From: Carpediemonas membranifera BICM
Lineage: Eukaryota; Protista; Fornicata
Direction of reading: 5' to 3'
DNA: 64,000 nucleotides
Assembly: GCA_019828565.1 (NCBI GenBank)
Contig: JAHDYR010000005.1
Location: forward strand, 1,776,871 to 1,840,870
Numbering within the stretch: position 1 is the stretch's first letter; the number at the start of each line of letters is the position of its first letter. The notes under the pieces are model-generated. The model saw only the letters and a program-made list of their open reading frames with translations, made no database searches and had not been told where the DNA came from. This document shows, in pieces, positions 2,615 through 63,552 of this stretch. Position numbers and translations under genes: made by a program.

Positions 2615-2672
2615 ATCCACAAAGTGTGGCTCTATAACAGAGAGCCCTCCTCTTAAATCCAACCAAAATGGG
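2615..2672. repeat. Split direct repeat B2
   Basis: ATCCACAAAGTGTGGCTCTATAAC...CCAAAATGGG, same as 2854-2911. Confidence 0.95.
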
Positions 2673-2773
2673 GGGGGGCGAGTATTTACTTCGGGTGGCT
2701 TCCCCGAGCTCTTATGACAGACCCGGGTAAATCCTCGTCTCGCGATCCGGTCAGGTCCGAAACGGCTCCGACA

Positions 2774-2911
2774 CCTGCCGATGCGTTTCGAAGTGTGACC
2801 TAAAGTGCACATTTATCGGCGCGCGCAGGTGCCAGTGATGGTCCTGTGACAGGATCCACAAAGTGTGGCTCTATAACAGAGAGCCCTCCTCTTAAATCCA
2901 ACCAAAATGGG
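2774..2911. repeat. Adjacent split direct repeats A2 (2774-2854) and B1 (2854-2911)
   Basis: A2 matches 6203-6283 and B1 matches 2615-2672. Their junction reproduces the expected circle junction. Confidence 0.95.
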
Positions 2912-3066
2912 ACAATCCCGCAAGACGTCCCTGTGGGACTAAAGCTTTGGGCCGGCGAGTCTATCTCGCCTCGACCAGAGTTAAGAATTAATGATGAATC
3001 CAGGCCGGCGAGTCCGTCTCGCCTCGGCCGTTCCCCTCGAACGCGGATGTTTAATGGAGGGGGTGG

Positions 3067-4218
3067 TTAAAAGTGGGGCCCGAGAAGGCTGAGGTTCATC
3101 CTCCTGGTGAGGTCCTCGTTTGTTCTGATGGCGTCAGCGATATAGCTGCGGAGGGAGGTGACGTCCTTCCATGTGCCCATTGAGAGGATCACCTCCAGCG
3201 GGACTCCTGATAGAGCCATCTCCGACGCTGCCCCCTTACGGAAGCTGTGGAGACCCGTCCGTGGACCGAACAACGCCTTCACGACTCGTCGGAGGTGTGC
3301 GGCTGTGAGCGGTTTGTCTCTGCTCAGGCGCCCGTTGACTATGACTCGCCAGATGGGGGTGTCATCAGCCAGGTAGTGTGTGCCCTCGACCCAGCGTCTA
3401 AGTGCCAAGGCCGGGTTGAAGGCGGCTGATAGCCATACGTATGGTACGCGCTTCTTAACTCCCGTTAGGATGGTCTTGGTCCGCTGAATGTGTAGGAGAA
3501 TGTCGCCGTTCTTGAGTAGCTCCAGGTCGGCCGGGCATAGGGAGAGTATCTCGATGCCTCTGGACACCGTCAGATAGGCGACTGCCCCAAAGAGACATGC
3601 CTGATATGACTCAAAGTCGTCACTCCGGCGCCCCAGTGCCTCGATCATCTCAGCCTTGGTGATGGCGCCCTTAGCCGCCTGCTTAACGATGTACTTGGAG
3701 TTGGCGGGCGGATGCCAGTCTTTGAGGAACTCCTGTAGCTGAACAATCCAGTAGCCCTTCCTCGCCACGTTCGATGGCCCGCAGAAGGAGCCTTCGTCCT
3801 TGAGGAAGGCTACAAGCTGGTCTCGATCCGACAGGCTGCGATCGCGAGAGCCTTCGAACCTGGCCACCCAGCCGGCCACCGTCCGAGCAGACGCGTGATT
3901 AAGGTGAATCACTCTGTCCGACCTGAGGACTCTGTGGAAAACGTCCTGAACGCCATCACATTGAACCGTAGGCGTCCTCTGTCCTGTAGGTGAAGTAGGT
4001 GGGCCAGATCTGAGCTCGAAGCCGGGACGGAGAGACGGAGTTTCCAGGACGTCCAACTCTTGAGGAGTCTCATCTCCGGCGCTTGAACCTCTGGGTAGAG
4101 GAGAAAGACTGCTGAGGTCCAAGACCTCGGGTGTCCAGTCTGAGTCTGAACTCTCGCTGTCGCTATCTTCTGGACTATGGCTGCCATAGACGAATTGGGG
4201 GCCCAGAGGACGCGACAT
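3067..4218 (-). CDS. Tyrosine recombinase of the DIRS-like element (likely ATG 4218; frame open to 5784)
   Basis: Catalytic residues R (SRGIEIL), K (RTKT), HxxR (GLHSFRKGAA), W and Y (MGTWKDVTSLRSY). Confidence 0.88.
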   Translation of the reverse strand: MSRPLGPQFVYGSHSPEDSDSESSDSDWTPEVLDLSSLSPLPRGSSAGDETPQELDVLETPSLRPGFELRSGPPTSPTGQRTPTVQCDGVQDVFHRVLRSDRVIHLNHASARTVAGWVARFEGSRDRSLSDRDQLVAFLKDEGSFCGPSNVARKGYWIVQLQEFLKDWHPPANSKYIVKQAAKGAITKAEMIEALGRRSDDFESYQACLFGAVAYLTVSRGIEILSLCPADLELLKNGDILLHIQRTKTILTGVKKRVPYVWLSAAFNPALALRRWVEGTHYLADDTPIWRVIVNGRLSRDKPLTAAHLRRVVKALFGPRTGLHSFRKGAASEMALSGVPLEVILSMGTWKDVTSLRSYIADAIRTNEDLTRRMNLSLLGPHF

Positions 4219-5705
4219 CCAAGCCTTACGTCTACGTCCGTTGAGACTGTCTGGACTGGACCCCACTCCGCGAGGACAGATTCCATGCTGGACTCCAGAG
4301 AGGAAGGGAGTCGTGAGAAGCCTCTGGACAGCCGATCTGCTGCCAGGTTGATGATGCCCGGAGTGTGTAGTCCACGGAGTGTCAGGTTCCGGTCCTCCGC
4401 CTCCTTCTGGATCTGGGCTAGAATGTGCAGGGCCTGAGGTGGAGCCTTCGTAGACCCCGCCTTGTTGAGCCAGGCCAGAGCTGATGTGTTGTCTGAGAAG
4501 ATCGATAGCTCGCGTTGGGAACTCTGTCTGCCGATCAGACGGATGCCCTGTAGGATTCCCGCGAGCTCCTTCACGTTGATAGATTCTGCTCTTAGTTCTG
4601 GAGTGAACGTGCCCGAGGCTGAGGTCCCATACTCGCCGTGCACGGCTGCTCCCCACTTGACTCCAGATGCGTCTGTCGATACGACGAGGTCTAAGGAGGG
4701 GTGAGCGCCCCAAAGCGACTGAAGTTCTCTGATGTCTCGGACTGGGCGCTCTCTTAGCAGTAGCAGCCACTCTTGCAGTAGCTCCTTGGAGAGTGGGTCC
4801 TGTTGAAGGTGTCTCAGCCGGAGGAAAACCCCGTGGGCGGTTGTAGCGAAGTAAGTCAGTCTCCCGAGGATCTTGGCCCAAGTCTCCTGATCGATGGTCT
4901 TGCCTGCCAGAGCCTGATGAATGTGAGAGGAGTAACGTTTGGCCTTGTCCGCCGGGAGGCGTATTGTAAAACTCGCGGAGTCTATCACGAGCCCCAGATA
5001 GACCAATGACTGAGTCGGTGCCCATTCTGACTTCTCCTCTGAGGTGAGGACACAGAGGTCGGCTAGAGTCCGCCTGATGCGCGGCACCGCCCTCCTCAGG
5101 ATTTCTCGGTCGCGGTGAAATAAGAGGAAGTCGTCGAGGTAGACAACGATGGTAAGACCCGTCCGAAGGGCTAGTATCTTGGCGAGTTGGTTGGTGATCG
5201 TCTGAAACACGAACGGCGATGCGCGCCAGCCGAAGCCTAGCACTCTGTACTGAAACGCTCGTCCGTCTGGAAGATAGACTCCTAGCAGCTTGCGGTCCTC
5301 CTTCCGTACTGGTACTTGATGGTACCCGGACTTGAGGTCGAACTTGACCATCCAGTCGCCCCTCTGGAGAAGGGAGAGAGCTCTGCGCAGACCGTAGAGC
5401 CGGAAGGATGAGCGCTCTGCCGAGCAGTCGTTCAGTATCGTGAGGTTGTGAATGATCCTCTTCGACTCGCCCTTCGGCACAGTAAACAGCGAGGCGGTGT
5501 GTCGCAGGGAAGAGGGATTCACTTGCTCTATGACGCCTGTCTCTATCAAGGAAGGAATCTGCTGGACAATGAATGGGTCGACTGTCGGCTGTTGCCTTGG
5601 TGCTGGTGGTTGACTTCTCAGACGGATCTCGACCCCGTATCGTAACCAGTTGATCACCCGTTGTGATGCTCCCAACCTCTGCCACTCCCTCCACGCCGCG
5701 TTCAT
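3909..5705 (-). CDS. Reverse transcriptase-RNase H of the DIRS-like element
   Basis: RT: DLKSGYHQV, LGFGWRASP, YLDD. RNase H: TDAS..WGA, INVKEL, SDNTSA, N..ADRLSR. Confidence 0.95.
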   Translation of the reverse strand: MNAAWREWQRLGASQRVINWLRYGVEIRLRSQPPAPRQQPTVDPFIVQQIPSLIETGVIEQVNPSSLRHTASLFTVPKGESKRIIHNLTILNDCSAERSSFRLYGLRRALSLLQRGDWMVKFDLKSGYHQVPVRKEDRKLLGVYLPDGRAFQYRVLGFGWRASPFVFQTITNQLAKILALRTGLTIVVYLDDFLLFHRDREILRRAVPRIRRTLADLCVLTSEEKSEWAPTQSLVYLGLVIDSASFTIRLPADKAKRYSSHIHQALAGKTIDQETWAKILGRLTYFATTAHGVFLRLRHLQQDPLSKELLQEWLLLLRERPVRDIRELQSLWGAHPSLDLVVSTDASGVKWGAAVHGEYGTSASGTFTPELRAESINVKELAGILQGIRLIGRQSSQRELSIFSDNTSALAWLNKAGSTKAPPQALHILAQIQKEAEDRNLTLRGLHTPGIINLAADRLSRGFSRLPSSLESSMESVLAEWGPVQTVSTDVDVRLGCRVLWAPNSSMAAIVQKIATARVQTQTGHPRSWTSAVFLLYPEVQAPEMRLLKSWTSWKLRLSVPASSSDLAHLLHLQDRGRLRFNVMAFRTFSTESSGRTE

Positions 5706-5719
5706 GCATGGAAAGAGGG

Positions 5720-6202
5720 TTAGGTGTGGGCTCTCTTGCCGGAGGATCCTGTCTGAGTGCGACCTCGGTCCTGAGCGCGGCCACCGCGGCGAAAATTAGC
5801 GTCGCGCTTATCGCCCTTAGACTTGGCGCGGGCCGCCAGTTCCAGGACCTCGTCGCGATCAGGCACGCCCTTCGCCTTGCAATAGTTCTCGAACCGCTCT
5901 GCAGTAGCGTCAGTGTACACGTCCTTGATTAGAAGGTACTGGATTCTTGCAAAGAGAATGTTCCCGATCTCCTTCATCTTTGCGCCGTTCTCGATCCTAT
6001 TCATGGTCTTGTATACGAATCTGGCCTCATCTTCGAGGCCGAACCTCTTTGGCATCTCCAGGAACAGTGGACGGCGAGCTGCTTCTGCTTGCTGCTCCAA
6101 AATTGCTTCCGATTGTATCTTAACCAAGCGCTCCAGCTTCTCGATACGCTTGTTAAGCTCATCGGGACTGTCTTGCGGCGGCAGGTCTTCGTTATCAGAC
6201 AT
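5720..6202 (-). CDS. gag-like ORF1 of the DIRS-like element
   Basis: First ORF after repeat A1; N-terminal coiled coil; ATG at 6202 (MSDNED). Confidence 0.7.
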   Translation of the reverse strand: MSDNEDLPPQDSPDELNKRIEKLERLVKIQSEAILEQQAEAARRPLFLEMPKRFGLEDEARFVYKTMNRIENGAKMKEIGNILFARIQYLLIKDVYTDATAERFENYCKAKGVPDRDEVLELAARAKSKGDKRDANFRRGGRAQDRGRTQTGSSGKRAHT

Positions 6203-6283
6203 CCTGCCGATGCGTTTCGAAGTGTGACCTAAAGTGCACATTTATCGGCGCGCGCAGGTGCCAGTGATGGTCCTGTGACAGGA
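6203..6283. repeat. Split direct repeat A1 (element 5' terminus)
   Basis: Same as 2774-2854. Ends in the palindrome TCCTGT-G-ACAGGA and directly abuts the gag ATG. Confidence 0.95.
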
Positions 6284-28938: not shown

Positions 28939-31086
28939 CTAGGACTCTCTCTTGAGCGCTTTCACTTGTTGGCCAAACGATAAGGCGCTCAAGAAGGCCG
29001 TGTTTCCGGACCGCTGGAACATGGTGGACGCCGCTGCTGCCCTGCCGGCGACTGGGAGATCGTCAACTGAGCAAGGGTCGTCTCTCAGCAACGCAAGCAT
29101 CGTGTTGGTGTGTTCATCTGCCGTCACAGCCTCCACGCCCTCCGGCACGCCGGAAACCCAGAAGTTGAACTCCGACTCCGGCTCCGGAGAACAGCCTGCA
29201 CTCTGGTACAATGATATAAACTGCACGAGACTGCCAGGGTCAGCTCTTCTCAATACAGCACAAGCAATATCCACCGCCGCCACAGGCCCGATCGTCCCAG
29301 CCCACGCAGCCGGGGTTGCTAGCGCACTGGCCACAATTGGGAAATGTAACGGTGTGCATGCGATCACTGCGTCCATGGCTAGGCGGGCCGATGGGTAGTC
29401 TGCCATGACTGCGGTCAGTCGCTCTCTAAGGTCGGCGGTGTCTGCCCGTACAGCCTCCGCGACCCCCAGCAGTCTCTCTCTCAGCACGGGCCTGGCCCTG
29501 CTTCTCGGGACTTCTGACCCTGGCCGCATGATCGGTGGAAGCAGGTCAGGGTCGACCTGGCATGAATCGCCCAGAGCTGAGCGGGCCCTGGTCTCGATAG
29601 CTCGGACGGTGCGGGCAACGGCAAAGGCTGGGGCGGGGATGACGTGGGGCGGGCAGGCGCATAGGGTCTGGGTGGCCTCGACGTAGTGCTCGTAGAGGGA
29701 CTCTACAAGAGCGTGCTCGCCATAATGGTCGACGATGGCGAGGGCGAATGCTGCCTTGGCGATTGGGGCTAGTTTTGGAATATCTGCCGGATCTACCGAT
29801 GAATCTATGAGATATAGCAATATTGACGAGATTGTCTCATCATCAACACGTGTCTTCAGGAAACTACCCATGCTGTTGCTAATGGCGTCATATCTAGGGG
29901 CCGCAGCAAACGTCCCCGCGGAGCAACTAACCCCGCCGTTCGCCCCATCGACCGAGGCCCACGACCGCGCTGGCTCCTTTCCCTCGCTGCCGAAGCCCGC
30001 GATCTCTCCCAGGGGGACCCCAGTGTCAATGTGGAACACAGCCCAAAGGCTGTTGCTGGCGGTGAGGCAGAGCATCAGGTCCCCGACGATGAGCGGAGTT
30101 TGATTGGGGATTTGATCGGTTGGGATGCGGGAGAGGGGGTCGAGGACGGCGATGGAGTCGAGCCGCGTGGCAAGAAGGCGGTCAGCTTCAGCCTTGAGCG
30201 GCTGGTCGCGGGCAGCGTCGTATGACCGTATTCTACTGACAACGCCGTCCTTGGTCAGCACGCGTGGCCCCTGCTCCGTTACAAGCACCGAGTGTACCTG
30301 GTCTGCTGGGACGTTCAAAAGCTGCACATGGTTGGGCGACTTGATAATAAACACTGCTCCATTGGGAGTTGACTCCACGAGCACTACACCCAGACGGGTC
30401 GGAATGAGGCGTGCCTTGTGGGCAGGCGAGAGGGCGACTGCCCGCACGGGCGTGTCGAGGTGCGGGTATGTGTGGAACGAGGCAGTGGAGACGAACACGG
30501 TGCTCTCGCTAGTGTGGACGGCCATGGTACCGCTGCTGGTGTCCGCTATGATGAATGAGTCAGCGCCGTCTGGGTAGCTGGCTGACCCGAGGCGGGACCA
30601 GGCGTGGTGCTTCTTGATGCAGACAATAGTGCGGTCTGAGAGGTGGAGGATGATGGTAGAGTGTATGATGTCGACGTGGACCACCTTACGACTGACGAAG
30701 GCTGAGATACTAACGCCCTCGACTTCAAGCATGGTGTCGTCGTCGTATGAGGCACTGAAGGCGTCTCTGAGATCGTCCTCATGGATCGGTGCGTCATCAC
30801 CTGCAGGGTTGTTGGAAAATAAGGCCACTAAGCGACCACCGCGACCCACAACGACGAAATAGTCTGGACTAGCTGTTACAAAGGTGATAGGGGATAGTTC
30901 GTTCGATGAATCCAGAGTACCAAGAATATTTCCACCAATGAGATCAGGCCAGACTCTCTCAACTGGCTGAAAGCGGAGCATCGAATTCCAACAAGATGAC
31001 GATAATGTGCCACGCAGGATTAGAATTGTTGAGTCCAAAACACCCAGTGATCCAAGCAGCATCAGGATCGCAGTGTGGTTCATCAT
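28939..31086 (-). CDS. Hypothetical protein (beta-rich N-terminus, helical C-terminus)
   Basis: 715-codon ORF; no family recognised. Confidence 0.6.
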   Translation of the reverse strand: MMNHTAILMLLGSLGVLDSTILILRGTLSSSCWNSMLRFQPVERVWPDLIGGNILGTLDSSNELSPITFVTASPDYFVVVGRGGRLVALFSNNPAGDDAPIHEDDLRDAFSASYDDDTMLEVEGVSISAFVSRKVVHVDIIHSTIILHLSDRTIVCIKKHHAWSRLGSASYPDGADSFIIADTSSGTMAVHTSESTVFVSTASFHTYPHLDTPVRAVALSPAHKARLIPTRLGVVLVESTPNGAVFIIKSPNHVQLLNVPADQVHSVLVTEQGPRVLTKDGVVSRIRSYDAARDQPLKAEADRLLATRLDSIAVLDPLSRIPTDQIPNQTPLIVGDLMLCLTASNSLWAVFHIDTGVPLGEIAGFGSEGKEPARSWASVDGANGGVSCSAGTFAAAPRYDAISNSMGSFLKTRVDDETISSILLYLIDSSVDPADIPKLAPIAKAAFALAIVDHYGEHALVESLYEHYVEATQTLCACPPHVIPAPAFAVARTVRAIETRARSALGDSCQVDPDLLPPIMRPGSEVPRSRARPVLRERLLGVAEAVRADTADLRERLTAVMADYPSARLAMDAVIACTPLHFPIVASALATPAAWAGTIGPVAAVDIACAVLRRADPGSLVQFISLYQSAGCSPEPESEFNFWVSGVPEGVEAVTADEHTNTMLALLRDDPCSVDDLPVAGRAAAASTMFQRSGNTAFLSALSFGQQVKALKRES

Positions 31087-31089
31087 ACT

Positions 31090-31200
31090 CTATCAATCGT
31101 GCGCAGCATATCACGCGCGCTGCAGCGCGTGCTTGCTCAACTTAGCAAGTTAATGATAGCGAGGAAGAGCACCTCTCTGGGAGTCGTAGTGGAAAGGAGA
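31090..31200 (-). ncRNA. Candidate Fanzor omega-RNA scaffold
   Basis: Hairpins CTTGCT-AAGTTG-AGCAAG and CGCGC-TGCA-GCGCG directly after the Fanzor stop. Boundaries are a guess. Confidence 0.4.
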
Positions 31201-32334
31201 TTGCTCTATCTGATCTGAAGTTACATCGAAGGTGCACCAAAGGATGTTCTCGCTGGCGCTCTTATCTCGGTGAGACAGATTGAGAAGCATGTCTCTCTGT
31301 TCGGGATGCCGCCGTAGCCGTTCAACGGGCCATGGAGCTCCCTCGCACGCGGGATTCTGGCAGAGCGTGGTGCGGTGTGTGTGCACCACACGTCTGAAGT
31401 GTGCTTTGCAGTATGGGCACACGATGGAAGTGCGGAATTCGGAGACCATCGTGACAGTCACGACGACGTTGTGCCGGAGCATGATGCCAGGAAGAGCTCG
31501 AGCAAAGTGGCGGTACGGAGCACACGAGGGAGTGCCGGCGGAATCAAACAGTGCAGCCCCATACGCGACTTCGAGATGACTGGGCTCCGGGGGGCTCCCG
31601 CCGAGATCATCCAGGAGTTGACGTCCAGCCCGGGCGAAGTGCTTCTGGCGCAGACGGTGATTGGCAAAACTCGCACGGCGGATACACTTTCTCGTCCCCT
31701 CGTTGATGATCTGAACGATGTTCTCATGGACAAACCTAATCGACTGTTTGAGAGCCTCTAGACTTGTCGTTTTGAACGATGCTGCGCTCATATTCACGCG
31801 GAAAGAGGGGGTGGCAGTGTAGCCACACTTAGCGAGTACGCCAGATACACTCTGTCCGTCTGGGCGGCGGATCGTGTAGCCGCCCAGCGACCGAGCACCA
31901 GGGTCGAAGCCCATGAGAGCTTGAATGTCCGGGGCAGGAGTAGCCTCGGCGTCATCCTGACCGAGCCGAGCCCGCTTGTTATTGCTACCCTTTTTGAAGG
32001 CTTCCCTGAAGTCCTGGACGAGTGGGGTTATGTCAGGGTCCCTCCACATCGCCAGGTCGCCGATCCACCTGCACCGATCCGCTGCCTTTGCCTTCGACAC
32101 CTTTTGCTGAGCAATGCTGACGATCTGCGCGAGGGCCTCCTGGTCGAACAGGTTGACCGTCCTCGGTGGGGTCAACGCGTGCGCAGATGCAGAGACGCAC
32201 GCAAGCAGGCAAGTGAATGTGTACTTAGCCTGCGTGAAAGAACGCATGCCCGGTTCAAGATTTCCTCGCCGCGGCGCGTTGTTATCCCCTCCACCGTTAA
32301 TCTCGCCAATGGCCTTGTTAACGGAAGCCTTCAC
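31150..32334 (-). CDS. Fanzor (eukaryotic TnpB-like RuvC RNA-guided endonuclease), N-terminus uncertain
   Basis: RuvC-I GFDPG; VAYG..F; RuvC-II VSEFRTS..CPYC; zinc-finger second half CQNPAC; RuvC-III HRDKSASENI. Confidence 0.85.
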   Translation of the reverse strand: MKASVNKAIGEINGGGDNNAPRRGNLEPGMRSFTQAKYTFTCLLACVSASAHALTPPRTVNLFDQEALAQIVSIAQQKVSKAKAADRCRWIGDLAMWRDPDITPLVQDFREAFKKGSNNKRARLGQDDAEATPAPDIQALMGFDPGARSLGGYTIRRPDGQSVSGVLAKCGYTATPSFRVNMSAASFKTTSLEALKQSIRFVHENIVQIINEGTRKCIRRASFANHRLRQKHFARAGRQLLDDLGGSPPEPSHLEVAYGAALFDSAGTPSCAPYRHFARALPGIMLRHNVVVTVTMVSEFRTSIVCPYCKAHFRRVVHTHRTTLCQNPACEGAPWPVERLRRHPEQRDMLLNLSHRDKSASENILWCTFDVTSDQIEQSPFHYDSQRGALPRYH

Positions 32335-32941
32335 CGTGTATATCTTGGAAGGCGTTGGAGTTTATTGAGCTGCCTGCATCGATCATTTCTTTTCAGGGTT
32401 CATCAGCTGGCAGCATCCCTCAAAACACAAGAAACCAGCATCATACAACACAGAGCGTCTTTACTACCAGCTACAACCGCTTTCCACCACTAGTGTCTCT
32501 CACAACAGACGAAGATGACGAAGACGACACGAGCTTCAGACGCCGGCAATGGACGACAGATGAGCGCGTAACAGACGAGCACAGACGCGAAAGAAGACAG
32601 CAGCGTTCGACACAGACGATGGACGACGCATCTTTTCGTGCAGACCGACGACTGAAAGCACGAAAGCGATAAAGACCCTTAAAGTGCACAAGAGGTCAGG
32701 CCGCATTGAGGGCGTTTTGAGGCTGTAGCAGCTGTTGCCAATCGGTTCCCTCAGCGGCATGCTCATGATTTTCGGACTACTCACACTACAGTCACGACGC
32801 ACAATATGACGCATGAAAAATCAGACGCAACCATACAGTGCGCTGGATAGGATGGGCTGAGTGAGCAACCTCCTCGCTCTCGCGGCGGCGTCAGGTCGGC
32901 TGAAGAATTTTGCGCATAAGCAACCAAACCGACACAAACTT

Positions 32942-34496
32942 CATGAGAATCGCGCTGGAAGGGAATAGGGTAAACCAGGCGACTCTCGTGGCACTAGGAA
33001 AGCTGAATGATAAGGATACGCTCCAGAACGGTGCTTCCGAGCTCGACGCGATCATCCGCCGTCTCTCAGTCGAAACCATCCCCGTATTCCTCGCTGCCAT
33101 GTACGAAACAAACAAAACGTTCCCAATATCATCCCGTCGGGAGGTTTTGAAGGCGATTGGGATCCTTGCGGAGACACACCGGGACAATGCATACTCCGAC
33201 CTGTCCAAAATCATCCAGTACGTCAACAGACGCCTGAAGGACTCCGAGAGCCTGCTGAATCCAGTATGCGCGCACACATGTGGCCTTCTATCGCGCCACA
33301 TCTTTGCTCCTTGCCCACTCGCCCGACCCAGCGGCCTCGCAGTCTTCTTCAGGCCACTGCTTCAAACTATGGCGGTGCAGGACGTTACCATACAGCAGGG
33401 GGCATGCTTGTGCCTCAGTGCGGTGATCGAGTCGGCCCCCGCACATGCTGGGCCTGAGATTGACAAGCTCGTCGGCCGTTTGTTCGAAAGACTCACCTCG
33501 CCCTCGTGTCTCGCGCCAGAGAGCATACTGGACTGCATCACCACGTGTGTCACTGCATGTTCATCGCACATTATTCCATTGGTGGCTGATATTGTCAGAT
33601 TTGCTACAGAACGGCTCAACCACGATTCTTGGAAGGTCAAGGTGTCCGCGGCTAAGTGCCTCACCGCGCTGGCAGGCCTGGGCGCTGAAGTTGATGATCT
33701 CAGGGACGATATCGTGGCCATGATTGAGTTTTTCAGATTTGATCGGATTAAGCCCGTCAGGGCAGCGCTGGTCGTCGCTCTCAAGGCCTGGAAGGGCGAG
33801 GACGAAGACACAGACAACGAGGCCGAGCCTATGTGTGTATCTGATCTGTCGCTCAGCCCACGCAGGTCGATGTCAACACCGAGGCTGCGCGCTGACACAA
33901 AGGCAACCCAAGGGGCAGATTCACCGAAGGCGGTCGCCGAGTCGACGGAGGATCCGGACGCCAGCATGATTCCGGCACCAACTCCGGTAGCCAGAGACGT
34001 TCCGGCAACTGTCTCAGAGCTTGCAGTCACGGATGGTCAAAATGACTCAGTCCGGGTCGATGCGGGTCTGGTGACTCGACTCAGAGATCAAGTCGCTTCC
34101 CTCCAGGGCCGCATAGACGCCCTCGAGAGCCCTGTGCCTCCACCACCCAAGAGTGTGGCCGACGATGTTGGCATGCAGAGACGGTTGCACCAGCCCTCTT
34201 CGCTAGCCCAGGAAGCTGGGCCGACCCGCTGGACCGAGCGAGACCTGCTGACCCTCACTCCGAACCTGGCGGCTCTGCCCACCGATGACCTCGCGTCGTG
34301 TCTCACCGCCGTCTGCGACAGCTGGCGACCTTGGGACCCAGTTCCTTCCCTGGTCTGGATGAAGCAGCTCGCTGGACTACGGCGGCCGGTGGCTGCGGCG
34401 CTGGTGAGGCGGGTCTGCGTGTGTCTGGAGCAGATTGTCGGGAACGACGATGACGTGGCGCATGAGGCCGGTGAGCTTCTGATGAAGATCAGATGA
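32942..34496 (+). CDS. TORTIFOLIA1/SPIRAL2-like HEAT-repeat microtubule-associated protein
   Basis: LGKLNDKDT...ELD.II..L, RLKDSES, DSWKVK..A, RFDRIKPVR, followed by a coiled coil. Confidence 0.8.
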
Positions 34497-34612
34497 TCTA
34501 GATTCCCTCAATCGGCCCAATACTCAGAAATAAAGCGCTAAGCTGCTGCTAAGTAATGCTCATAACAAAAATACAGATGCGGTTTATTTCTTTTCATACA
34601 AAAGTCCCCTCT

Positions 34613-54121: not shown

Positions 54122-54451
54122 GGACATGGTAAAGCAGTATTCTTTCAAGGAACAAGCAACATTTTCTTTATAATTCACAAGCCCTGGCTCCCACCCAGGG
54201 CCCGGCATTAGCTGAAATGCACTGCCGGTAGGCTGTAGCGGCAGCCAAAGGGGGGTCACGTCATATCGTCCCCTCCTAAGTACCCTGCCCGAAGAATGGA
54301 AGGTCACCAGGTGGTAACAAGGTTGGCCTGACAAGGGTCACCGAGACCGGCATCTAGGCCCCTTGTTAGGACAAGGATAGCAGGAGAGGAGCGGGAAGCT
54401 GGGGCTCCCAAATTCTGGGAATTCGCAGGATAAGGAAACAGGACAAAGGCA

Positions 54452-57400
54452 ATGGTAACCTACAAGATACTTAGTCTGAACACAGAGGGACACATAGGAA
54501 GAGGAAAGGACTTCACGGCGTCTATGGCAACGGCGATTCAGCTAAGGTTGAAGGACATAGAGGCAGTACTCATACAAGAGACATGGAGAACGGCGAATAC
54601 GAGGGTTCATTGCTTCATGGACCTTGACTACGCACTAGCAGGGAGGGAGACGGAAGAGGACCTGGTCTTAGCCAACGAAAAACGAAAGGCGGATGTCAAA
54701 AGTCAGCACCGCATCAACCGACAACTAGGCATAGCAGGCAATGACGAACCTGCGCCAAGATGGAAGGGAACAAGGGAAGGCATCGGCACGATAGTGAGCC
54801 CACACGCAACTGCAAAGTGGGACATCGGCATAACGGACAGCCTATCGGGAAGAGTGCAAGCCAGCATAATGAGAACCGGCAGGGACATACTAGTCATCAA
54901 CGTGTATGGCCCTCCATCCGGCCACAGCAAGCAGGAGAAGGATGGATTCAGGGACACTATACAGAAGATCATGGACATGAAAGGGAGCATGGAGGCCATA
55001 ATTATGGGAGACTGGAACATCGACCCAGGCCAGATGGAAAGATCCACCCGGTGGAAGGATATGATGGAGAAGCACAGGCTCAAAGCCATCATACCCAAGT
55101 CTGGGACGCTCACATCAGGAACATCAACCCCGGACTTTGCAGTGACAACACCAGGAATCCAGGGGGCGGAGATTGAGGTGGTAGAGTCTCAGAAGGTCGG
55201 GGTATGGGGCTCAGCACACAATGGAATCACACTAGCATGGAAGGAACAACGGTACTATGGCAGAAGTGAGCGAGACGTGGCTCTGGCCATACCCGAGGTG
55301 CACACCTGGCCCATGAAAAGAAGGAGGGGCCAGTCACAGTCTCAAAGCTGAACAGGATCAAGAGCTCGGACCAATGGGAAGAGACTATAAGAGCATGCAT
55401 GGGCGACCCAGTGAACAACAGGGGAGCAAAGGCAAGGGACAAAGTGTTCGGGAACGGAGTGTGGAGCGAACTCCAGCGAACCCCATGGACAGAAATAGGC
55501 AACAGGACCAGGAAGGAAAAGGATGAAAGAGGAGCTGGAGAAATACTGGGGAGAGCGCAGGGCCAAATGGGTGGCCGACATCAGCAGAAGTGCAAAAAGG
55601 GGGTATAGGGCCTCAAGGGCCTCAGTGGAAGCTGCCATCAGAAGGTGGTGGTGTGACAACCAATACAAGGGAATGCCGGAGAGCCTCCTCAAGGACGGAG
55701 TGATAACCACGGACAAGGCGGCCATCAGCGAGATCCTCTTGCAACAGTATGCTAGAGTCAGCAGAGGCAGGGAACCCACCTGGAAGACATGGAGGGGCAG
55801 GGACGGAAATGAGTTCAAGGAAAGCGAGGTCAAAGCCGCAATCAAAAGGATCAGGAGGGACACCGCACCAGGGCCTGACCTCACATCTGGAGACATGCTG
55901 AGAGAGCTGGATGAGAAAGGCCTTAGGGAAGTGACGAGGCTCATCAACAGGGTCTACAGGGAGGGCGACGTACCCAAAGCATGGAAGTATGCCACAGTGT
56001 CGGCCATACACAAGACAGGGAAGCCAAGGGTCAAGCTGGAATCATATAGACCAATATCCTTGACACCACTGCTGTACAGGGTCTATGGTAGATTGCTCAA
56101 GATACGTCTGGAAGCAGCAACGAAAAGGTTCATACCAAGAGAACAGGCTGGTTTCCAGTCAGACAGGGACGTCATCCAGCAGATACAGTACATTGTGCAG
56201 CGGCACCAGGAGGGGGTGAGACCACGTCAATCTTTCTGGACATCGAGAAGGCATATGACACGGTACCAAGGGACATTCTCATGGATAAGCTACAGGGTAT
56301 GGGGGTGGAGGAGCACTTGATCAGGGCAATTCAAGGCACAATAAAGGAAACCTGGATATCAGTCAAGGGGGCAAAGGCATGGGAAAGAACCAACAGGGGA
56401 GTTAAGCAAGGGTGCGTCCTGGCACCGACACTGTTTGTGCTGTTCATGGCTAACTGGCCCCACCTGGCCAGAAAGAAAAATCAAGGGAGAACGGTACGAC
56501 ATCAGAGAACCGCCAAGGACCACGAGCCACCTCAGCGACCGACTACCGGCAGCACTTACCATGTTTGTGGATGACACTGCGGTCACAGGGAGCAAGCCGG
56601 AGCATAGCCAGATGGTCGCCAACATAATGGTGGACATAATCAGAGAGCATGAAATGAGGGTGAACGCCCAGAAGAATGTAATGATTAGCGTGGACAGAAC
56701 AGCCCTAGTCAGGATCGAGGGGGTAACACTACTGCCAGAGAAGGAGGCGAGATACCTGGGATTATGGATCGCAAGTGGGAAGGACCCTATGTCGGCCTGC
56801 ATAAGGCGGAAACAGGAGCAGAGCGAAAGGTACAAGAGACTGGTGAGATGGGCAGGGTGGACCAGGGCAAACATGCCAGCACTAGCGAGCAGGCTACTAC
56901 TGGAAATATATATATGGCCCAGGATCCTCTTCGGAGTCGAGGTGTGGGGGAACGCACCGGGAGGTAGAAGGATCTGGAATGACTGGCAGGGAATCATGGC
57001 AGGAACAGGACCGGGAGGGGGCGCAGCCATGAGGCTGATGAATGGATGGGTGGACCTCCAGGCACACATGGAATGGCTGGCAGTCAAAAGGATAGTCAAC
57101 TACAGGGACCAGGATATACCAGTCAGAAACAGAGAATGGGGGCGGGGCACGGTTATGTGGGAAGCTAGGGAGAGAGTGCAGCATCTACTGGAGGGCACCA
57201 GAGAGGGAGCCCCTAAACCAGCGCTACTGGATTATGGCATGGAAACGATCAGGAGGGGGTGGATGAAGCGGTGCAAAAGCCGTACGGCACTAGGACTAAT
57301 GGAAATCATGGGGACAAGGAAATTAAGCAAGTGTCTGCAAGGTAAGCCTACGGTAGACCGAAAGGCTGGGAAGGGGCAAAGCAGGGCGGAATGGAAGAGA

Positions 57401-57894
57401 ATTGTATCCATTGCAGCCAATGTCAGCCCATCCCCATCGTCGGCAGAGAGAGGGAGGGCCCTATGAGAGCCATCACAGAGCTGGCCCAAGGCGCTGACCT
57501 GAAGAGAGAAATTAGCAGACTATGCCCCCTATGCTCGGAGGAGTCGGAGGTGAGCCTGTTCTACAGGATCATTAGGGAAAAGCCAGGACCAGCAAGGAAG
57601 CAGGAAATGATCAGGGAGTGGGCAGAGGGCCAGAGGCTAGGATCGGCAGCGCACATAATCTGTGAATGCCCGGCAGTAGACAGGGGAGAAGCTTGGACAA
57701 AGCTGTGGACAGCAGCGAAGCACAAAACTAAGGACTTGGAAGTAAGGCAGGGCCCCCAGGGCGAATGGTACCAGGAAAGACCCATCCTAGAATTACAGCA
57801 ACTAATAATATGGGGCTCGGAGGACATTTGGGAAGGCCTCACGGCAGGACTACGGGAACTGGCAAAGGTTTACAACAGCTTCAAGGTGGAATAG
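54452..57894 (+). CDS. LINE pol: APE endonuclease + RT + CCHC (several single-base frameshifts)
   Basis: APE: SLN..G, IQET, NVYGP, GDWN, PDF, SAH. RT: APGPD, YRPISL, EQAGF, FLDIEKAYD, GVKQG..LAP.LF, FVDD, RYLG. CCHC: CPLC...HIICEC. Confidence 0.9.
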
Positions 57895-58865
57895 AAGCAT
57901 GTCATGAACCCCTGACTCCAGGACCGGGAAGGGATGGACAAGGAATCAGCCATGGACCACCCTCGCTGGTGCTAAGCTCCTGGGATCAGTGAGGAAAGGC
58001 CCCACGTATCCCGGTAGCCAGGAACCAAAGCAAGGGAAGGAACGACTGCAAGGAAAGAACAGGAAGGACAGACCAGAAATAAGAAAGAAAGGACATGCGA
58101 CAAGGACAGAGCAAGGATAAGGTCAAGGAAATCCATATTCATATGGTTGCACCACTCGTTGGGACCCCAAGGAAACTGCAGGGACTGGCCACGGGGGTCG
58201 GAGGGGCACAGGTGCCCCTGCCGCCCTTGTTAACGACATGGGAAACCAAGGACATGTAGTGCAAGCGAAATGTTGTAAGGGGTAACAGGACAACCAGGCC
58301 TAGTGCCTGGGGGTACACCACCCATGCCCTGACCCACGCCACCTAACCGGGGTAGACAGCATGGACTTAGTCACTTTCCCCGCCTTCGGGTAGGCTTCCT
58401 AACAGAGTCGAGGGGGCATGGAATTGGGGAACCGGACAGACGAGAGGGTGCCGTGGCTGAACGGCTCTACAAGGACTGCAGGGAAGCAAGGAGTGTCATA
58501 GTCAAGGTTCTGCAGGACGATCCTGCCTGTCAATGCCCCGAGGACAGACCCCCAGGCTCCCCGGATAGTTGCCGGACTTTCAGGGAGACAGGAAAGCATA
58601 TTTGCACGGAGATGGCCGCAGGGCCTCTGGGGCGATTGGAATCGGCTTTCCGCGGAGACAGTAGCACCGAAAGCCCAAGGCAAACGCTGCTGACCAGTTT
58701 GCCACGGGAAATAGGCAGTACCCCGGGGCACTCAGTTCCAAGACAACGGGAAACAAGCTCAGTCCGGGGTCAGAATCCAAGCACCATAAATTTCTTTCTT
58801 TCCTCTTCTACCCCCCCTCCCAGGAGGACCGCCCGGTCCGAGAGACCCTCCCACAGGAGGACTAG

Positions 58866-59200
58866 AAGGCAGCCGAGCAGGCCAAGGTCTGGACCCGCGA
58901 CCAGCAAAGGAGAAGGGAACCCAAGGGGCTGTGCCCCTATCACAGAAACACACTAGCCTACTGTCACTGTGCGCTTGCGGATGTATCGCTCTTCTACACA
59001 AGACTCTCCCTGGCCATCCACGTGCTGTACAACCCGTGGACCTGGGCTGATGTAGGAGCGGAACTAATCGCACGGGGAGGGAAAGTGACGGGGGCACAAA
59101 GCCCCATCATCAGAGTAGGACACGGGGCCCCGGACCTGGCTGAAGAGATCAACCTCTATAGAGGGCGAGAGGTCATCACACCCCTAGGGCAATTACAGCA
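58866..59200 (+). pseudogene. Fragment of a diverged paralogous Maelstrom-like ORF, in frame with downstream Gypsy gag
   Basis: EPKGLCPYHRNTLAYCHCALADVSLFYTRL aligns with EPKGVCPYHRHTAGCYHCGLADTVVFTARI at ~52453-52545. Boundaries approximate. Confidence 0.72.
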
Positions 59201-60931
59201 TGTGATCTTTACCACCATGGGCTCCATCGAGCGTGCGACCCGCATTCTGATCGCCAGCTTCCGCAATCGCATGCGACTATTCGATTCCCTTCCTGCCGGT
59301 GAAGACCTGCCAGAGGCAACCACGGAGGAGGATGTGACCTCCAGACGTCATCGCTTCGAACAGATCTGTAGCAGACTGCTCGTCGACGCCCTCCAGCGGC
59401 CTAAGGCCCTGAAGACTAAGACGAGATGGATCTCGCTCCTATGGGGCGACGACTCCTTCGATGACACCGTCAAGTCGGCGGTCAAGGCTGCTAAGTTCCT
59501 CGACCGCCAGGGTCCACCCAGGGCTCCGAGGGCCCACGCCCCGGCTCCAGCCGGCCACGTGAAGCGTGTGGGCCGAGGCCCTACGCATCCCGCTAACGGC
59601 CCGCGCCCTTAGGGCCACAACCTCCCCAGACCTCAGGGTCAGCGCCCTTCGGGCCAGCAGGCTCCTCAGCCCCTTACCAGACCCTGCAAGTTTTGTCAGG
59701 GCTGGCATAAGGACTACCGCTGCCCTCAGCACCCGAAGTTCGCCGCTGAGGAACGCCAGGCTCAGGCCAACGCGGCCCAGACTTCGTCTGTCGATCCTAT
59801 GACCACCACGGCAACTATAAAAGGCCGTGAGTATTCTTTCACTGTCGACACTGGGGCAAGTATATGCTTTATGAGCCAGAAGGCTGTACGCCAGCTACCC
59901 AGAGACGCTGTATCAGTTGACACCGGAGAGTGGATCACTGTGACCCTAGGGGACAACCACAAGGTTTGGACGAACCAAGTAGCTACGCTCACCTTCCGTC
60001 TAGAACGGCTCGGCCCAGTGCCCATTACGACGACCTGGAAGTTCTATGTGCTTCCAGGCGAAGCCTTCAAGGTTCTATTGGGCTGCGACCTTCTTAGGTC
60101 ACTCAAGTTCATCGACGATGAGACACTCAACTTCAACCTCGAAAAGCTAGGCTCAGAGGACGAATCAGAGTGGGTTCCATTCACTCACAGGTACCTCGAC
60201 GAAGACCTGAACACAGCTGAGGTGGAAGAGAACCACCCGGATATTCCGGACTCAGCAATAAAGCCCCAGCTCGAAGAGCTCGTGGCCGCTTTCCCCGATA
60301 TTTGGGAAGAGTCTCTCCCCGCAGAAGGGTCTAACCTGGAGGAGATGACTATAGAGCTCGTAAACGAGCGGGACATTGTCCAGGCAAGAGCTAGAGGCCT
60401 TGCCGACGCGACAGCGACGCTTGTGGCGACCGAGCTCGAGGCTCTTTGGAGATCTGGGATCATCCGAGAGTCTCGAGGCCCTTACAGCTCCCCCATAGTG
60501 GTTGTGAAGAAAGGTCACAAGGGCTCCCAGAAAATCAGACTCTGCGTTGATTACAAAGAGCTGAACGACCTAACGATCAAGGACAAGTTCCCGATTCCAA
60601 ATGTTAGACATTTCGTGGATCGCGCGGCAGGCTGCAAATACTTTGCCTAGACCTTAGGCAGGGGTACTATCAGATGAACATGAGTGAAAAGGATATTCCT
60701 AAGACCGCGTTCGTTATCCCTGACTCGTACTTCGAGTTCACTAGGTGTCCTTTTGGTCTGACGAACGCTCCCTCAAGGTTCCAGCGTGCTTTGCAGCGGG
60801 CCTTTGCGGAAGTCCTTCATAAAGGAGTCGACATATACCTTGATGATATCATGGTATATGCTCGCTCGGAGGACGAGTTCGTCGCCCTGATAGAGAAAGT
60901 CTTCTCCATCTGCCGCGAGTACAAGCTACGC
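59200..60931 (+). pseudogene. Gypsy gag C-terminus, protease and RT N-terminal part (TAG at 59610, frameshift ~60648)
   Basis: Zinc knuckle, DTGAS and RT motifs; YFA..DLRQGYYQ is broken by a small deletion. Confidence 0.85.
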
Positions 60932-62429
60932 CATGGGGACAAGGAAATTAAGCAAGTGTCTGCAAGGTAAGCCTACGGTAGACCGAAAGGCTGGGAAGGG
61001 GCAAAGCAGGGCGGAATGGAAGAGAATTGTATCCATTGCAGCCAATGTCAGCCCATCCCCATCGTCGGCAGAGAGAGGGGAGGGCCCTATGAGAGCCATC
61101 ACAGAGCTGGCCCAAGGCGCTGACCTGAAGAGAGAAATTAGCAGACTATGCCCCCTATGCTCGGAGGAGTCGGAGGTGAGCCTGTTCTACAGGATCATTA
61201 GGGAAAAGCCAGGAGCAGCAAGGAAGCAGGAAATGATCAGGGAGTGGGCAGAGGGCCAGAGGCTAGGATCGGCAGCGCACATAATCTGTGAATGCCCGGC
61301 AGTAGACAGGGGAGAAGCTTGGACAAAGCTGTGGACAGCAGCGAAGCACAAAACTAAGGACTTGGAAGTAAGGCAGGGCCCCCAGGGCGAATGGTACCAG
61401 GAAAGACCCATCCTAGAATTACAGCAACTAATAATATGGGGCTCGGAGGACATTTGGGAAGGCCTCACGGCAGGACTACGGGAACTGGCAAAGGTTTACA
61501 ACAGCTTCAAGGTGGAATAGAAGCATGTCATGAACCCCTGACTCCAGGACCGGGAAGGGATGGACAAGGAATCAGCCATGGACCACCCTCGCTGGTGCTA
61601 AGCTCCTGGGATCAGTGAGGAAAGGCCCCACGTATCCCGGTAGCCAGGAACCAAAAGCAAGGGAAGGAACGACTGCAAGGAAAGAACAGGAAGGACAGAC
61701 CAGAAATAAGAAAGAAAGGACATGCGACAAGGACAGAGCAAGGATAAGGTCAAGGAAATCCATATTCATATGGTTGCACCACTCGTTGGGACCCCAAGGA
61801 AACTGCAGGGACTGGCCACGGGGGTCGGAGGGGCACAGGTGCCCCTGCCGCCCTTGTTAACGACATGGGAAACCAAGGAAATGTAGTGCAAGCGAAATGT
61901 TGTAAGGGGTAACAGGACAACCAGGCCTAGTGCCTGGGGGTACACCACCCATGCCCTGACCCACGCCACCTAACCGGGGTAGACAGCATGGACTTAGTCA
62001 CTTTCCCCGCCTTCGGGTAGGCTTCTTAACAGAGTCGAGGGGGCATGGAATTGGGGAACCGGACAGACGAGAGGGTGCCGTGGCTGAACGGCTCTACAAG
62101 GACTGCAGGGAAGCAAGGAGTGTCATAGTCAAGGTTCTGCAGGACGATCCTGCCTGTCAATGCCCCGAGGACAGACCCCCAGGCTCCCCGGATAGTTGCC
62201 GGACTTTCAGGGAGACAGGAAAGCATATTTGCACGGAGATGGCCGCAGGGCCTCTGGGGCGATTGGAATCGGCTTTCCGCGGAGACAGTAGCACCGAAAG
62301 CCCAAGGCAAACGCTGCTGACCAGTTTGCCACGGGAAATAGGCAGTACCCCGGGGCACTCAGTTCCAAGACAACGGGAAACAAGCTCAGTCCGGGGTCAG
62401 AATCCAAGCACCATAAATTTCTTTCTTTC
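60932..62429 (+). mobile_element. 5'-truncated copy of the 50141-58802 LINE
   Basis: Near-identical to 57307-58802; 16-bp TSD CGAGTACAAGCTACGC at 60916-60931 and 62430-62445; same (TTTC)3 end. Confidence 0.95.
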
Positions 62430-62687
62430 CGAGTACAAGCTACGCTTGAAAGCAGGCAAGTGCAAAATTGGCACGGACGACGTGGAGGCCGTGGGCTATA
62501 TCGTCTCTGAGAGAGGGAAGCAGCTGGCTCCATCCCGTGTACAGGCGATCTGGGATATTCCCGTCCCTGAGACGGCTAAGTCGCTCCAGAGGGTGCTAGG
62601 TTCATTCAACTACGTTGCGCAGTTCGTCGAAGACGCTGCCCGGACACTACGTCCCCTGAACCACCTACTCACCACCGCCTTAAAGGT
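62430..62687 (+). pseudogene. Gypsy RT C-terminal/thumb fragment
   Basis: LRLKAGKC...VEAVGYIVS..G...V.AI..IPVPET.K.LQR.LG.FNY...FV. Confidence 0.88.
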
Positions 62688-63552
62688 TTTGAGTTTTTGA
62701 GTTTATTTTTTGATACAGTGCCGGGGTGTCCACCTCCAGGCACTGGCCACAACCCGAGCCAGACGAGCGGTGATCAGCCGCAGGAGGGCAACGGTTCTCA
62801 TAACATTGGAAGCCAGAGCTGCGGCGCCCAAGAGTACTGTTCTGAAGCTGCAGGGAGAGGAGGGCCTAAAACCCCTTCGAAGAAGGGTAAAAAGATGACC
62901 CACGCGGGTCGGCCAGCTCACAACTTCCAGCTCTTGGCGCTGCGGGACTCTGTGCTCCGAGCCCGATGGGGCTCCCTCAGGACGATGATCGAGGAGGTCC
63001 TGAGACCGGGGAGGACGGTGGCGTTTTCCTATGTAAGCGAGGGAACCTACCAGTCACGCGTCACAAAGTACACTCAACATATGTGTGTGCTTGGCGTCGT
63101 CACGCCTGCTCAGGGTCAGGGGGTCCTTGAAAAGGAGGATGGGGTTAATCTTGAAGTGGTCGCACTTAGCCAAGTGGGTCTGGTTCAGGACAACCCACGT
63201 CCTGGATCTCAGCACTGCTAGGGTCTTGGTAGGGGACGTCAGGATCTCAATCACAGCCGCGGCGATGGCCTCACCCTGACAGAGAGGACATGCCTCAAGA
63301 GCTGCGGCGGCTTCCGGTTCATCCTTCAGGTCCTGTAGGATTCCCCTGACCGGCTGCCACGCGTCAGGAAGAGCCCCTCTCGTTGGCATAGGTAGACACG
63401 ATAGCCGTAGCATCGCGAGGCGCTTCGCTGGCCCAGCCGTTAGATGGTCGAGGTATGGCTGCCTGGCCGGGTAGTTAGAGCGGGTGAAAGGGCGGGTGAG
63501 TGCCGACTCCGTGACGTATCTCCTGACAGCCACTTTGTTACCACGGCAGATT
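62688..63552 (-). mobile_element. 5'-truncated LINE of a second family in opposite orientation
   Basis: 14-bp TSD ACCGCCTTAAAGGT at 62674-62687 and 63553-63566; ORF end with CPLC...HLAKC (stop at 63054); 3' end AATAAA followed by a CTCAAAAA-like repeat tail. Confidence 0.85.

Follow-up and report, generated by a model that had tools for sequence, protein, structure and literature searches.

The window, that is, the whole 64,000-nucleotide stretch of Carpediemonas membranifera DNA analysed here, carries a 1,662-bp element with a Fanzor-type gene between two divergent host genes, inserted 14 nt upstream of the contig start of the downstream gene. All Fanzor motifs of the element lie within a single minus-strand frame that stays open for 403 codons (32361-31150). 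The features of the gene and its neighbours are as follows.

28939..30992, minus: downstream host gene, no Pfam match, outside the element; the host contig ends at 30992
31006..32667, minus: window copy of the Fanzor element, 1,662 bp, placed by repeat-level contig cover, contig exits and sibling models that match from 32667 inward
31150..32361, minus: Fanzor open reading frame, stop to stop, 403 codons; the annotated protein (365 aa) begins at the ATG at 32247
31264..31266, minus: RuvC-III aspartate (HRDKSASENI), from the sequence
31345..31419, minus: C4 zinc finger, CPYC...CQNPAC (CPYC 31419-31408, CQNPAC 31362-31345)
31438..31440, minus: relocated RuvC-II glutamate (VSEFRTS), as defined in PMC10711439
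31558-31569, minus: VAYG, 40 residues upstream of the EFRTS glutamate
31903..31905, minus: RuvC-I catalytic aspartate (GFDPG), from the sequence
31996..31998, minus: in-frame deletion junction DFREA/FKKG, from the alignment to P0040 and contig loose ends
32353..32355, minus: family start codon, ACG here and ATG in the siblings (MPSKIYT), from the alignment; contigs of runs X3 and X5 differ at 32354
32943..34496, plus: divergent upstream host gene, TORTIFOLIA1-like HEAT protein (PF24714, E 7e-59), outside the element; run X2 contig 32934-34536

No transposase adjoins the gene, its neighbours being the TORTIFOLIA1-like HEAT gene and the ORF without a Pfam match; the latter ORF is lengthened upstream, in frame, by the right end of the element. 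Run X2 can be taken as RNA, because a 28-nt GT..AG intron of a host gene (36296-36269) is skipped in it and the flanking contigs stop near the ORF limits. Family contigs are present in this run. Run X1 has the same flanking contigs and depths and is thus not independent of X2. Contigs of the element reach depths of 157 to ~2,400, against 9-26 for three neighbours, a difference that copy number alone could explain; depth cannot rank the genes, and the contigs do not tell the strand.

Motifs and defects of the window copy

The window gene holds the RuvC-I DPG, the relocated RuvC-II glutamate and a C4 zinc finger followed by RD. D and E are 155 aa apart, the glutamate stands six residues ahead of the first zinc-finger cysteine (EFRTSIVCPYC), and the RD is placed 25 residues past the finger. 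The text of PMC10711439 gives DPG together with a glutamate six residues before the zinc finger as the Fanzor fingerprint, found in <1% of TnpB-family proteins, and in Fanzor the relocated glutamate is described as coming with G/P at the canonical RuvC-II site (PMC10711439, PMC10530073). The gene also fits the Bao and Jurka pattern D-X(125,275)-[TS][TS]-XX-C4-X(5,50)-RD, and fails to match Yoon's stricter regex CxxC-x(4,8)-D owing to insertions. Since the catalytic motifs are kept across subfamilies of ~50% identity, their layout is not chance. The original prediction of a Fanzor with an intact RuvC triad and its motifs at these places, in one frame, is borne out, as is the in-frame stop that it put upstream of the frame, a TAA at 32364-32362.

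The rest of the protein has fared less well. In a global alignment, residues ~125-357 of the full-length sibling P0040 (233 aa) find no match in the window copy, and the corresponding DNA gap is ~0.7 kb. The deleted block covers the predicted REC helices and the TDG motif of the Fanzor1 WED domain, at P0040 position 334. Contigs from other copies have loose ends exactly at 31998 and 31996 that run into the missing part from both sides, and these ends suggest a 3-nt microhomology at the junction. The N-terminal PSKIYTVK strand is retained in the ORF, which reads TPSKIYT where the siblings have MPSKIYT, the ATG having become ACG. On the left, ~76 nt found in several siblings are absent as well. 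The intact REC and WED regions and start codon of a functional Fanzor1 are thus wanting, and the copy is likely dead as a nuclease. This agrees with the prediction of a non-autonomous, defective copy. A spliced copy with upstream exons, also proposed, is not supported: the N-terminus is present, the gap is internal, and the missing DNA is absent from the locus. The loss of REC and WED had been named in advance as grounds for downgrading a single untranscribed copy to a pseudogene, and for the window copy that loss is what we found; yet the family is multi-copy, and contigs derived from it occur in the RNA run.

A further proposal was a compact or domesticated Fanzor, in which the host would have kept a functional RuvC-only protein. 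An in-frame deletion, an undamaged triad and zinc finger, and a GC by codon position that resembles that of host genes would all suit such a protein. The start codon, however, is lost, and since the deletions of the siblings vary in span, about one deletion in three should stay in frame by chance. Compared with run X1 contigs, the window differs at 15 positions (at 14 from all contigs placed there, at one from most); 11 of the 15 differences are non-synonymous, against 76% expected for random change, so that in this small sample the private changes look neutral and bear no sign of constraint. Domestication is on these grounds very unlikely. The window's own alleles are missing from the contigs at the 15 positions, but contigs drop rare variants and this is no evidence of silence. 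The window copy is 93-97% identical to its siblings, and the survival of the RuvC triad in a dead copy is most simply read as a sign of its young age.

We put at roughly 0.8 the probability that the observed motifs, multi-copy family, deletion, start loss and element span are those of an internally deleted, start-less copy of a divergent, high-copy Fanzor1-type family, a copy that would at most supply omegaRNA to intact siblings.

A multi-copy family in Carpediemonas membranifera

A homologue search with the window protein gave 32 matches among 7,999 candidates, consisting of its own 365-aa product and 31 C. membranifera clusters. With cluster look-ups and two further searches the set grew to 95 proteins: 87 are named C. 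membranifera, the window's own is present in two forms, two are metagenomic relatives and four are of unchecked source. The other genomic copies that the original prediction proposed to look for thus exist, as 87 sibling gene models, and the word 'alone' holds within the window, where it does not genome-wide. The total of ~90-100 gene models is approximate, as ~14 more cluster members are unlisted and some loci are split into two models; it amounts to ~1% of the 8,300 predicted C. membranifera genes. The copies lie on at least 38 contigs, with differing flanks.

By closest group, 69 of the 95 proteins belong to subfamily A, that of the window, 14 to C and 5 to B, while 2 are P0084-like and 5 are left over. 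The three subfamilies are ~40-50% identical and have DPG, TDG, E.RT, the four cysteines and HRDK in common. Full-length siblings measure 606-642 aa, and all seven motif flags of subfamily A are present in 4 of 86 censused proteins (P0003, P0036, P0040 and P0050). P0040 (642 aa) has the best claim to be an intact gene, with the caveat that gene models may hide frameshifts as false introns. Searched against 1.84 billion representatives, P0040 gave 31 matches, namely 26 from C. membranifera, one environmental fragment and four of unchecked source, and at E<=0.001 none of the 1.84 billion proteins was a relative from outside Carpediemonas-like sequences. The suggestion of a poorly sampled protist lineage as the source is supported. 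Two metagenomic proteins place the lineage outside the C. membranifera assembly. P0084 (JGI/IMG, contig of 2,511 nt) is a full-length relative of 646 aa with all catalytic motifs, its RuvC half 75% identical to subfamily B, and P0073 (ENA) is the second.

Many siblings have other deletions, of different spans. One mini-derivative, which joins 32568 to 31496, is in contigs of all four runs compared and matches the gene models P0030 and P0065. Two models are chimeric: P0008 is 96% B on its N side and 98% A on its C side, and P0090 has an A body with a 92% B tail. Together with P0027, these models switch between subfamilies B and A near GFDPG or in the tail, through recombination between ~50%-identical Fanzors or through annotation joins. 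Several other models are unusual. P0033 is a Cdc73 gene model that opens with ~85 residues of Fanzor N-terminus, either because the predictor spliced in a neighbouring insertion or because the transcript is truly chimeric; P0058 and P0095 have VPFRPCLGG, a peptide of subfamily-C tails, followed by subfamily-A left-end sequence, which suggests that elements cluster or nest; and P0006, a family member of 532 aa, is mis-annotated at source as 'cytosine deaminase'.

The family is very probably Fanzor, its fold being a prediction. A TDG in the WED domain, which marks Fanzor1 according to the text of PMC10711439, is present in all three subfamilies and in P0084. ESM Atlas searches, at 0.96 for the RuvC half and 0.98 for P0084, led to clusters of viral and eukaryotic proteins that bear either Cas12f1-like_TNB (in 12-63% of members) or DUF8286. 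The AlphaFold models are poor (mean pLDDT 38.9 and 37.1). With the poor full-length model, Foldseek ranked SpuFz and PpFz Fanzor1 structures first to fifth in the PDB (E 1.3e-3 to 8.8e-3, TM <=0.17); neither this model nor that of the window RuvC half (pLDDT 37-39) had a PDB match at E<=0.001, and TM-scores were <=0.18. In the viral library six large-virus proteins matched at E<=1e-3. With the RuvC half of the window protein, 6 of the first 8 Foldseek rows were Cas12f or Fanzor, none of them significant, and VIA-align on the poor models returned generic helical bundles only. The HMM and structure search that had been recommended accordingly has two sides: Fanzor1 structures come first, against poor models, no PDB match at that threshold and blank profiles.

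Sequence searches of Pfam, NCBIfam and the PDB gave nothing significant for the window protein or P0040. A profile search brought up just Cas12f zinc-finger matches at E 0.22, and the TnpB profiles had no significant match, PF07282 appearing only at E 0.12, for P0008. Assignment to Fanzor2 or IS607 was rejected on the lack of a significant TnpB profile match and of a recombinase adjoining the gene. Among metagenome contigs, 50 and 69 pattern matches, and 25 on viral contigs, confirmed no related locus. The lack of a significant match to a known family, and of any relative beyond Carpediemonas-like sequences, would also be expected of an unrelated repeat protein with coincidental motifs. Such a protein would not, however, be expected to keep four ordered motifs and TDG across ~50%-identical subfamilies; language-model and structure-alphabet searches point to Fanzor1; and a C. 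membranifera protein of the sister subfamily is listed as a Fanzor HMM match in Table S2 of PMC10711439. We regard an origin outside Fanzor as extremely improbable.

Element ends and the right-end structure

The features at the ends of the element are as follows.

30986..31005, minus: candidate guide flank; overlies the 5' end of the downstream host transcript
31001..31005, minus: right TTATC, candidate target-site duplication
31006..31040, minus: last ~34 nt of the element, with a direct copy at the left end of P0021, P0087, P0030 and P0089
31006..31152, minus: predicted omegaRNA scaffold, 147 nt; two short hairpins plus a long stem closing at 31008, 2 nt short of the element end
32634..32665, minus: perfect 8-bp hairpin stem, beginning 2 nt inside the left boundary; such a stem occurs at 30 of 18,270 sampled positions
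32668..32672, minus: left TTATC, candidate target-site duplication, 6 bp if the next G is counted

The ends rest on RNA contigs and translated gene models rather than on aligned genomic copies. Repeat-level contig cover is confined to ~31006-32667. Two contigs from different copies diverge from the window at 31006, one continuing for 613 and the other for 527 bases of unrelated sequence; another exits at 31032 instead. We place the right end at 31006 because two contigs break there, the predicted fold closes there and TTATC comes next. Chance would put TTATC directly outside both boundaries with a probability of 0.002 if the ends are exact, and of 0.013-0.028 with 1-2 nt of slack. The original prediction had seen no target-site duplication, and the 5-bp direct repeat flanking the element speaks against that; it had also seen neither a transposase nor terminal inverted repeats, and none was found next to the gene or at the ends. 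Between the end regions, inverted matches reach 6-8 bp at most, none of them terminal. A cut-and-paste (DDE) carrier would have terminal inverted repeats; this copy is truncated on the left, but the longer left end inferred for the siblings is a direct repeat. Hairpins lie near both boundaries, although the stability of the full 100-nt left-end segment is ordinary (z 0.26), and the asymmetric terminal inverted repeat pair of Helitron2 was not seen between the end regions of this copy.

The left ends of the siblings extend beyond that of the window copy. Five of the six sibling models that cross the left boundary, in three different frames, have the same 42 nt upstream; the sixth differs. This linker is compatible at 41-42 of 42 positions, as against 26-32 in shuffles, and none of 2,000 was as good. 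In four models (P0021, P0087, P0030 and P0089) a direct copy of the terminal 32-35 nt of the right end stands before it, and this direct copy begins at nearly the same base in two different contexts. It thus seems that ~34-nt direct terminal repeats or a partial-tandem structure belong to complete copies, and that the window copy falls short of them by ~76 nt at its left end. The contig break at 32668 was considered as the true left end and set aside, since five of six sibling models extend 42 nt past it and a single-base variant can explain the break.

The 147-nt right end folds at -53.2 kcal/mol (z -3.19), with none of 200 shuffles as stable, and has the lowest z of 42 sliding windows on a grid anchored on the element boundary. 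Its predicted layout matches the three-stem RNA given as the Fanzor1 scaffold in the text of PMC10711439, with the other strand folding as strongly. We consider it likely to be the omegaRNA. The opposite strand is equally significant (z -4.3), and the structure could therefore instead be a palindrome in the DNA that serves a transposase. Of the few sibling variants examined, two hit paired positions and no compensating change accompanies them, and Rfam returned no family for the right-end RNA, only a chance snoRNA match at E 0.67. The candidate guide flank has no other match in the window within 2 mismatches over 15 nt.

By analogy with the established biology of Fanzor1 (SpuFz1) and TnpB, an intact sibling of ~640 aa would bind the structured right-end RNA and use the next 15-20 flanking bases as guide; element-free sites would be cut, and homologous repair would restore or spread the element. 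The deleted protein keeps the RuvC triad but lacks the REC and WED regions, which serve to read the TAM and to grip the RNA-DNA duplex, and is thus not expected to cut under guidance. The window copy would make no working enzyme and could donate a guide to intact siblings.

Spread of the family and comparison with known systems

How copies move is a separate question, for which we tentatively favour, at somewhat less than even odds, an element without its own mover that is copied in trans by a rolling-circle HUH transposase from a fixed right end. Rolling-circle copying would give variable left ends, with a ~34-nt overshoot of the right end in some copies and truncation with a short duplication here, as well as frequent internal deletions. 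The Helitron2-borne Fanzor1 elements of Chlamydomonas are described with fixed 3' ends, 5' truncation, internal deletions and duplications (PMC3627910), and C. membranifera encodes helitron-related and geminivirus-like Rep proteins (PMC8516963). Two things count against this reading: the Helitron2 asymmetric inverted repeats of PMC3627910 were not seen at the element ends, and the HUH genes of the host are reported not to be expressed (PMC8516963).

The same dead copy and family might instead owe their spread to an RNA route, through the reverse transcriptase of a LINE or Penelope-like element, in which case the copy of the 3' end at the left end of some siblings would be a partial tandem (pseudo-LTR). 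Retroposition typically leaves a truncated 5' end and a short duplication, contigs of the family abound in a run of spliced RNA, and elements bearing reverse transcriptase lie in the window; Jiang et al. further report Fanzor1c in association with LINEs (PMC10530073). No poly(A) or simple-repeat tail is present at 31006, however. Bin means suggest that most contig depth is lost near 31080, still within the element, although 31006 is the end of at least three copies. We judge RNA-mediated spread unlikely, if worth keeping in mind.

Transposase-free spread is a rather remoter prospect. Here a host without NHEJ would mend Fanzor breaks by copying from ectopic copies, through SDSA/BIR or alternative end joining, and so yield new, deleted and chimeric copies. 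Metamonads are reported to be without Ku and DNA-PKcs and to rely on homologous recombination and alternative end joining (PMC8516963). The inferred 3-nt microhomology at the deletion junction, the B/A and A/B chimeric models (P0008, P0090) and, weakly, the absence of longer fused forms among 7,995 candidates would fit. The at least 38 contigs with different flanks go beyond homing alone, however, and the chimeras may be gene-model artefacts that join neighbours.

A close parallel to the rolling-circle reading lies in CRe-1, -2 and -3, the Helitron2-borne Fanzor1 elements of Chlamydomonas reinhardtii, which are non-autonomous and present in many copies. Their 3' end is fixed, copies are truncated at the 5' end or deleted internally, short duplications flank the truncated ones, and a hairpin lies near the left boundary; they differ in their asymmetric inverted repeats, not found in the C. 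membranifera element, and in genes with introns (PMC3627910). Replitrons of Chlamydomonas have direct repeats at or near their termini, imprecise ends and variable duplications, but their repeats are ~6 bp and their right end is fuzzy, whereas here the repeats are ~34 bp, the left end varies and the element is without a Rep gene (PMC10288648).

Spu-1 of Spizellomyces punctatus, with its nuclease SpuFz1 (PDB 8gkh, 9ceu, 9cey, 9cez), resembles the family in protein length (~600-630 aa against 642), in the shared DPG, relocated E, zinc finger and RD, in a structured RNA between stop codon and right end (predicted here), and in having no transposase inside (PMC10432273). Its 'ghost' loci, which are gene-less and keep the RNA, are like the deleted derivatives here, the 32568-31496 mini-derivative included (PMC10432273). 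Spu-1 has 30-nt inverted repeats, where the C. membranifera element has none and some of its copies have a ~34-nt direct terminal repeat, and a scaffold of ~75-80 nt, against the 147 nt predicted here (PMC10432273). SpuFz1 itself has no detectable sequence similarity to the family (11-13% in Foldseek alignments), and its REC and WED are missing from the window copy. The protein catalogued in 2023 comes from the same genome and lineage: a RuvC fragment of the 270-aa class, it belongs to sister subfamily C, ~50% identical to subfamily A, and by eye to the subfamily of P0057 (PMC10711439). The available text of PMC10711439 lists it without describing an element, ends, copy number or RNA.

The window locus is ordinary transposon debris, and the family matters more than the locus. 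Fanzor1 debris, copy counts of more than 100 and one protein of this lineage, tabulated in 2023, were already known (PMC10530073, PMC10711439), and Fanzor copy numbers of up to 122 per genome have been published (PMC10530073). In the open literature searched, we found neither the family nor its ends or RNA described, no paper joining Fanzor with Carpediemonas or metamonads, or TnpB with Carpediemonas, and no description of direct-repeat ends on a Fanzor carrier. The organism name, taxid and accession prefix are absent from the searchable supplementary files of PMC10432273 and PMC10530073, and two sections and the searchable supplements of the genome paper (PMC8516963) do not mention TnpB, Fanzor or transposons. 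The divergence of the family beyond Pfam, NCBIfam, the PDB and the search of 1.84 billion proteins makes P0040 (642 aa) and P0084 (646 aa) candidates for new TAM and omegaRNA diversity, and its ends are apparently ~34-nt direct repeats rather than inverted ones.

Both ORC and Cdc6 are reported to be missing from C. membranifera, for which the genome paper puts forward replication that begins at breaks and RNA:DNA hybrids (PMC8516963). A link between that hypothesis and the ~1% of genes that are Fanzor is a testable guess. As a long shot, the ~100 Fanzor loci, mostly protein-dead guide donors, might feed a few intact nucleases a genome-wide guide library, with the resulting breaks and R-loops either copying the element without a transposase or starting break-induced, origin-independent replication; self-copying by programmed breaks would lead to direct terminal repeats, chimeras and microhomology deletions. 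Any host role for the nucleases is a guess, and the decay pattern is that of a selfish element.

Other mobile elements lie elsewhere in the window. A reverse-transcriptase ORF on the plus strand (RVT_1, E 1.2e-14) occupies 1-2136, where it is cut by the window start, and probably belongs to a non-LTR element. A tyrosine-recombinase ORF (3067-5928, minus; PF00589, E 4.9e-6) within 2615-6283 is bounded by split direct repeats (2615-2672 equals 2854-2911, and 2774-2854 equals 6203-6283), a layout that we take to recall Ngaro/PAT-type DIRS retroelements. In the region 54434-62700, a LINE-like element with APE endonuclease and RT, frameshifted, takes up 54434-57466, and gypsy-like protease/RT sequence begins at 59613. 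A near-identical repeat of ~1 kb (57307-58326 and 60932-61953), its copies 3.6 kb apart, reflects a nested insertion or an assembly duplication.
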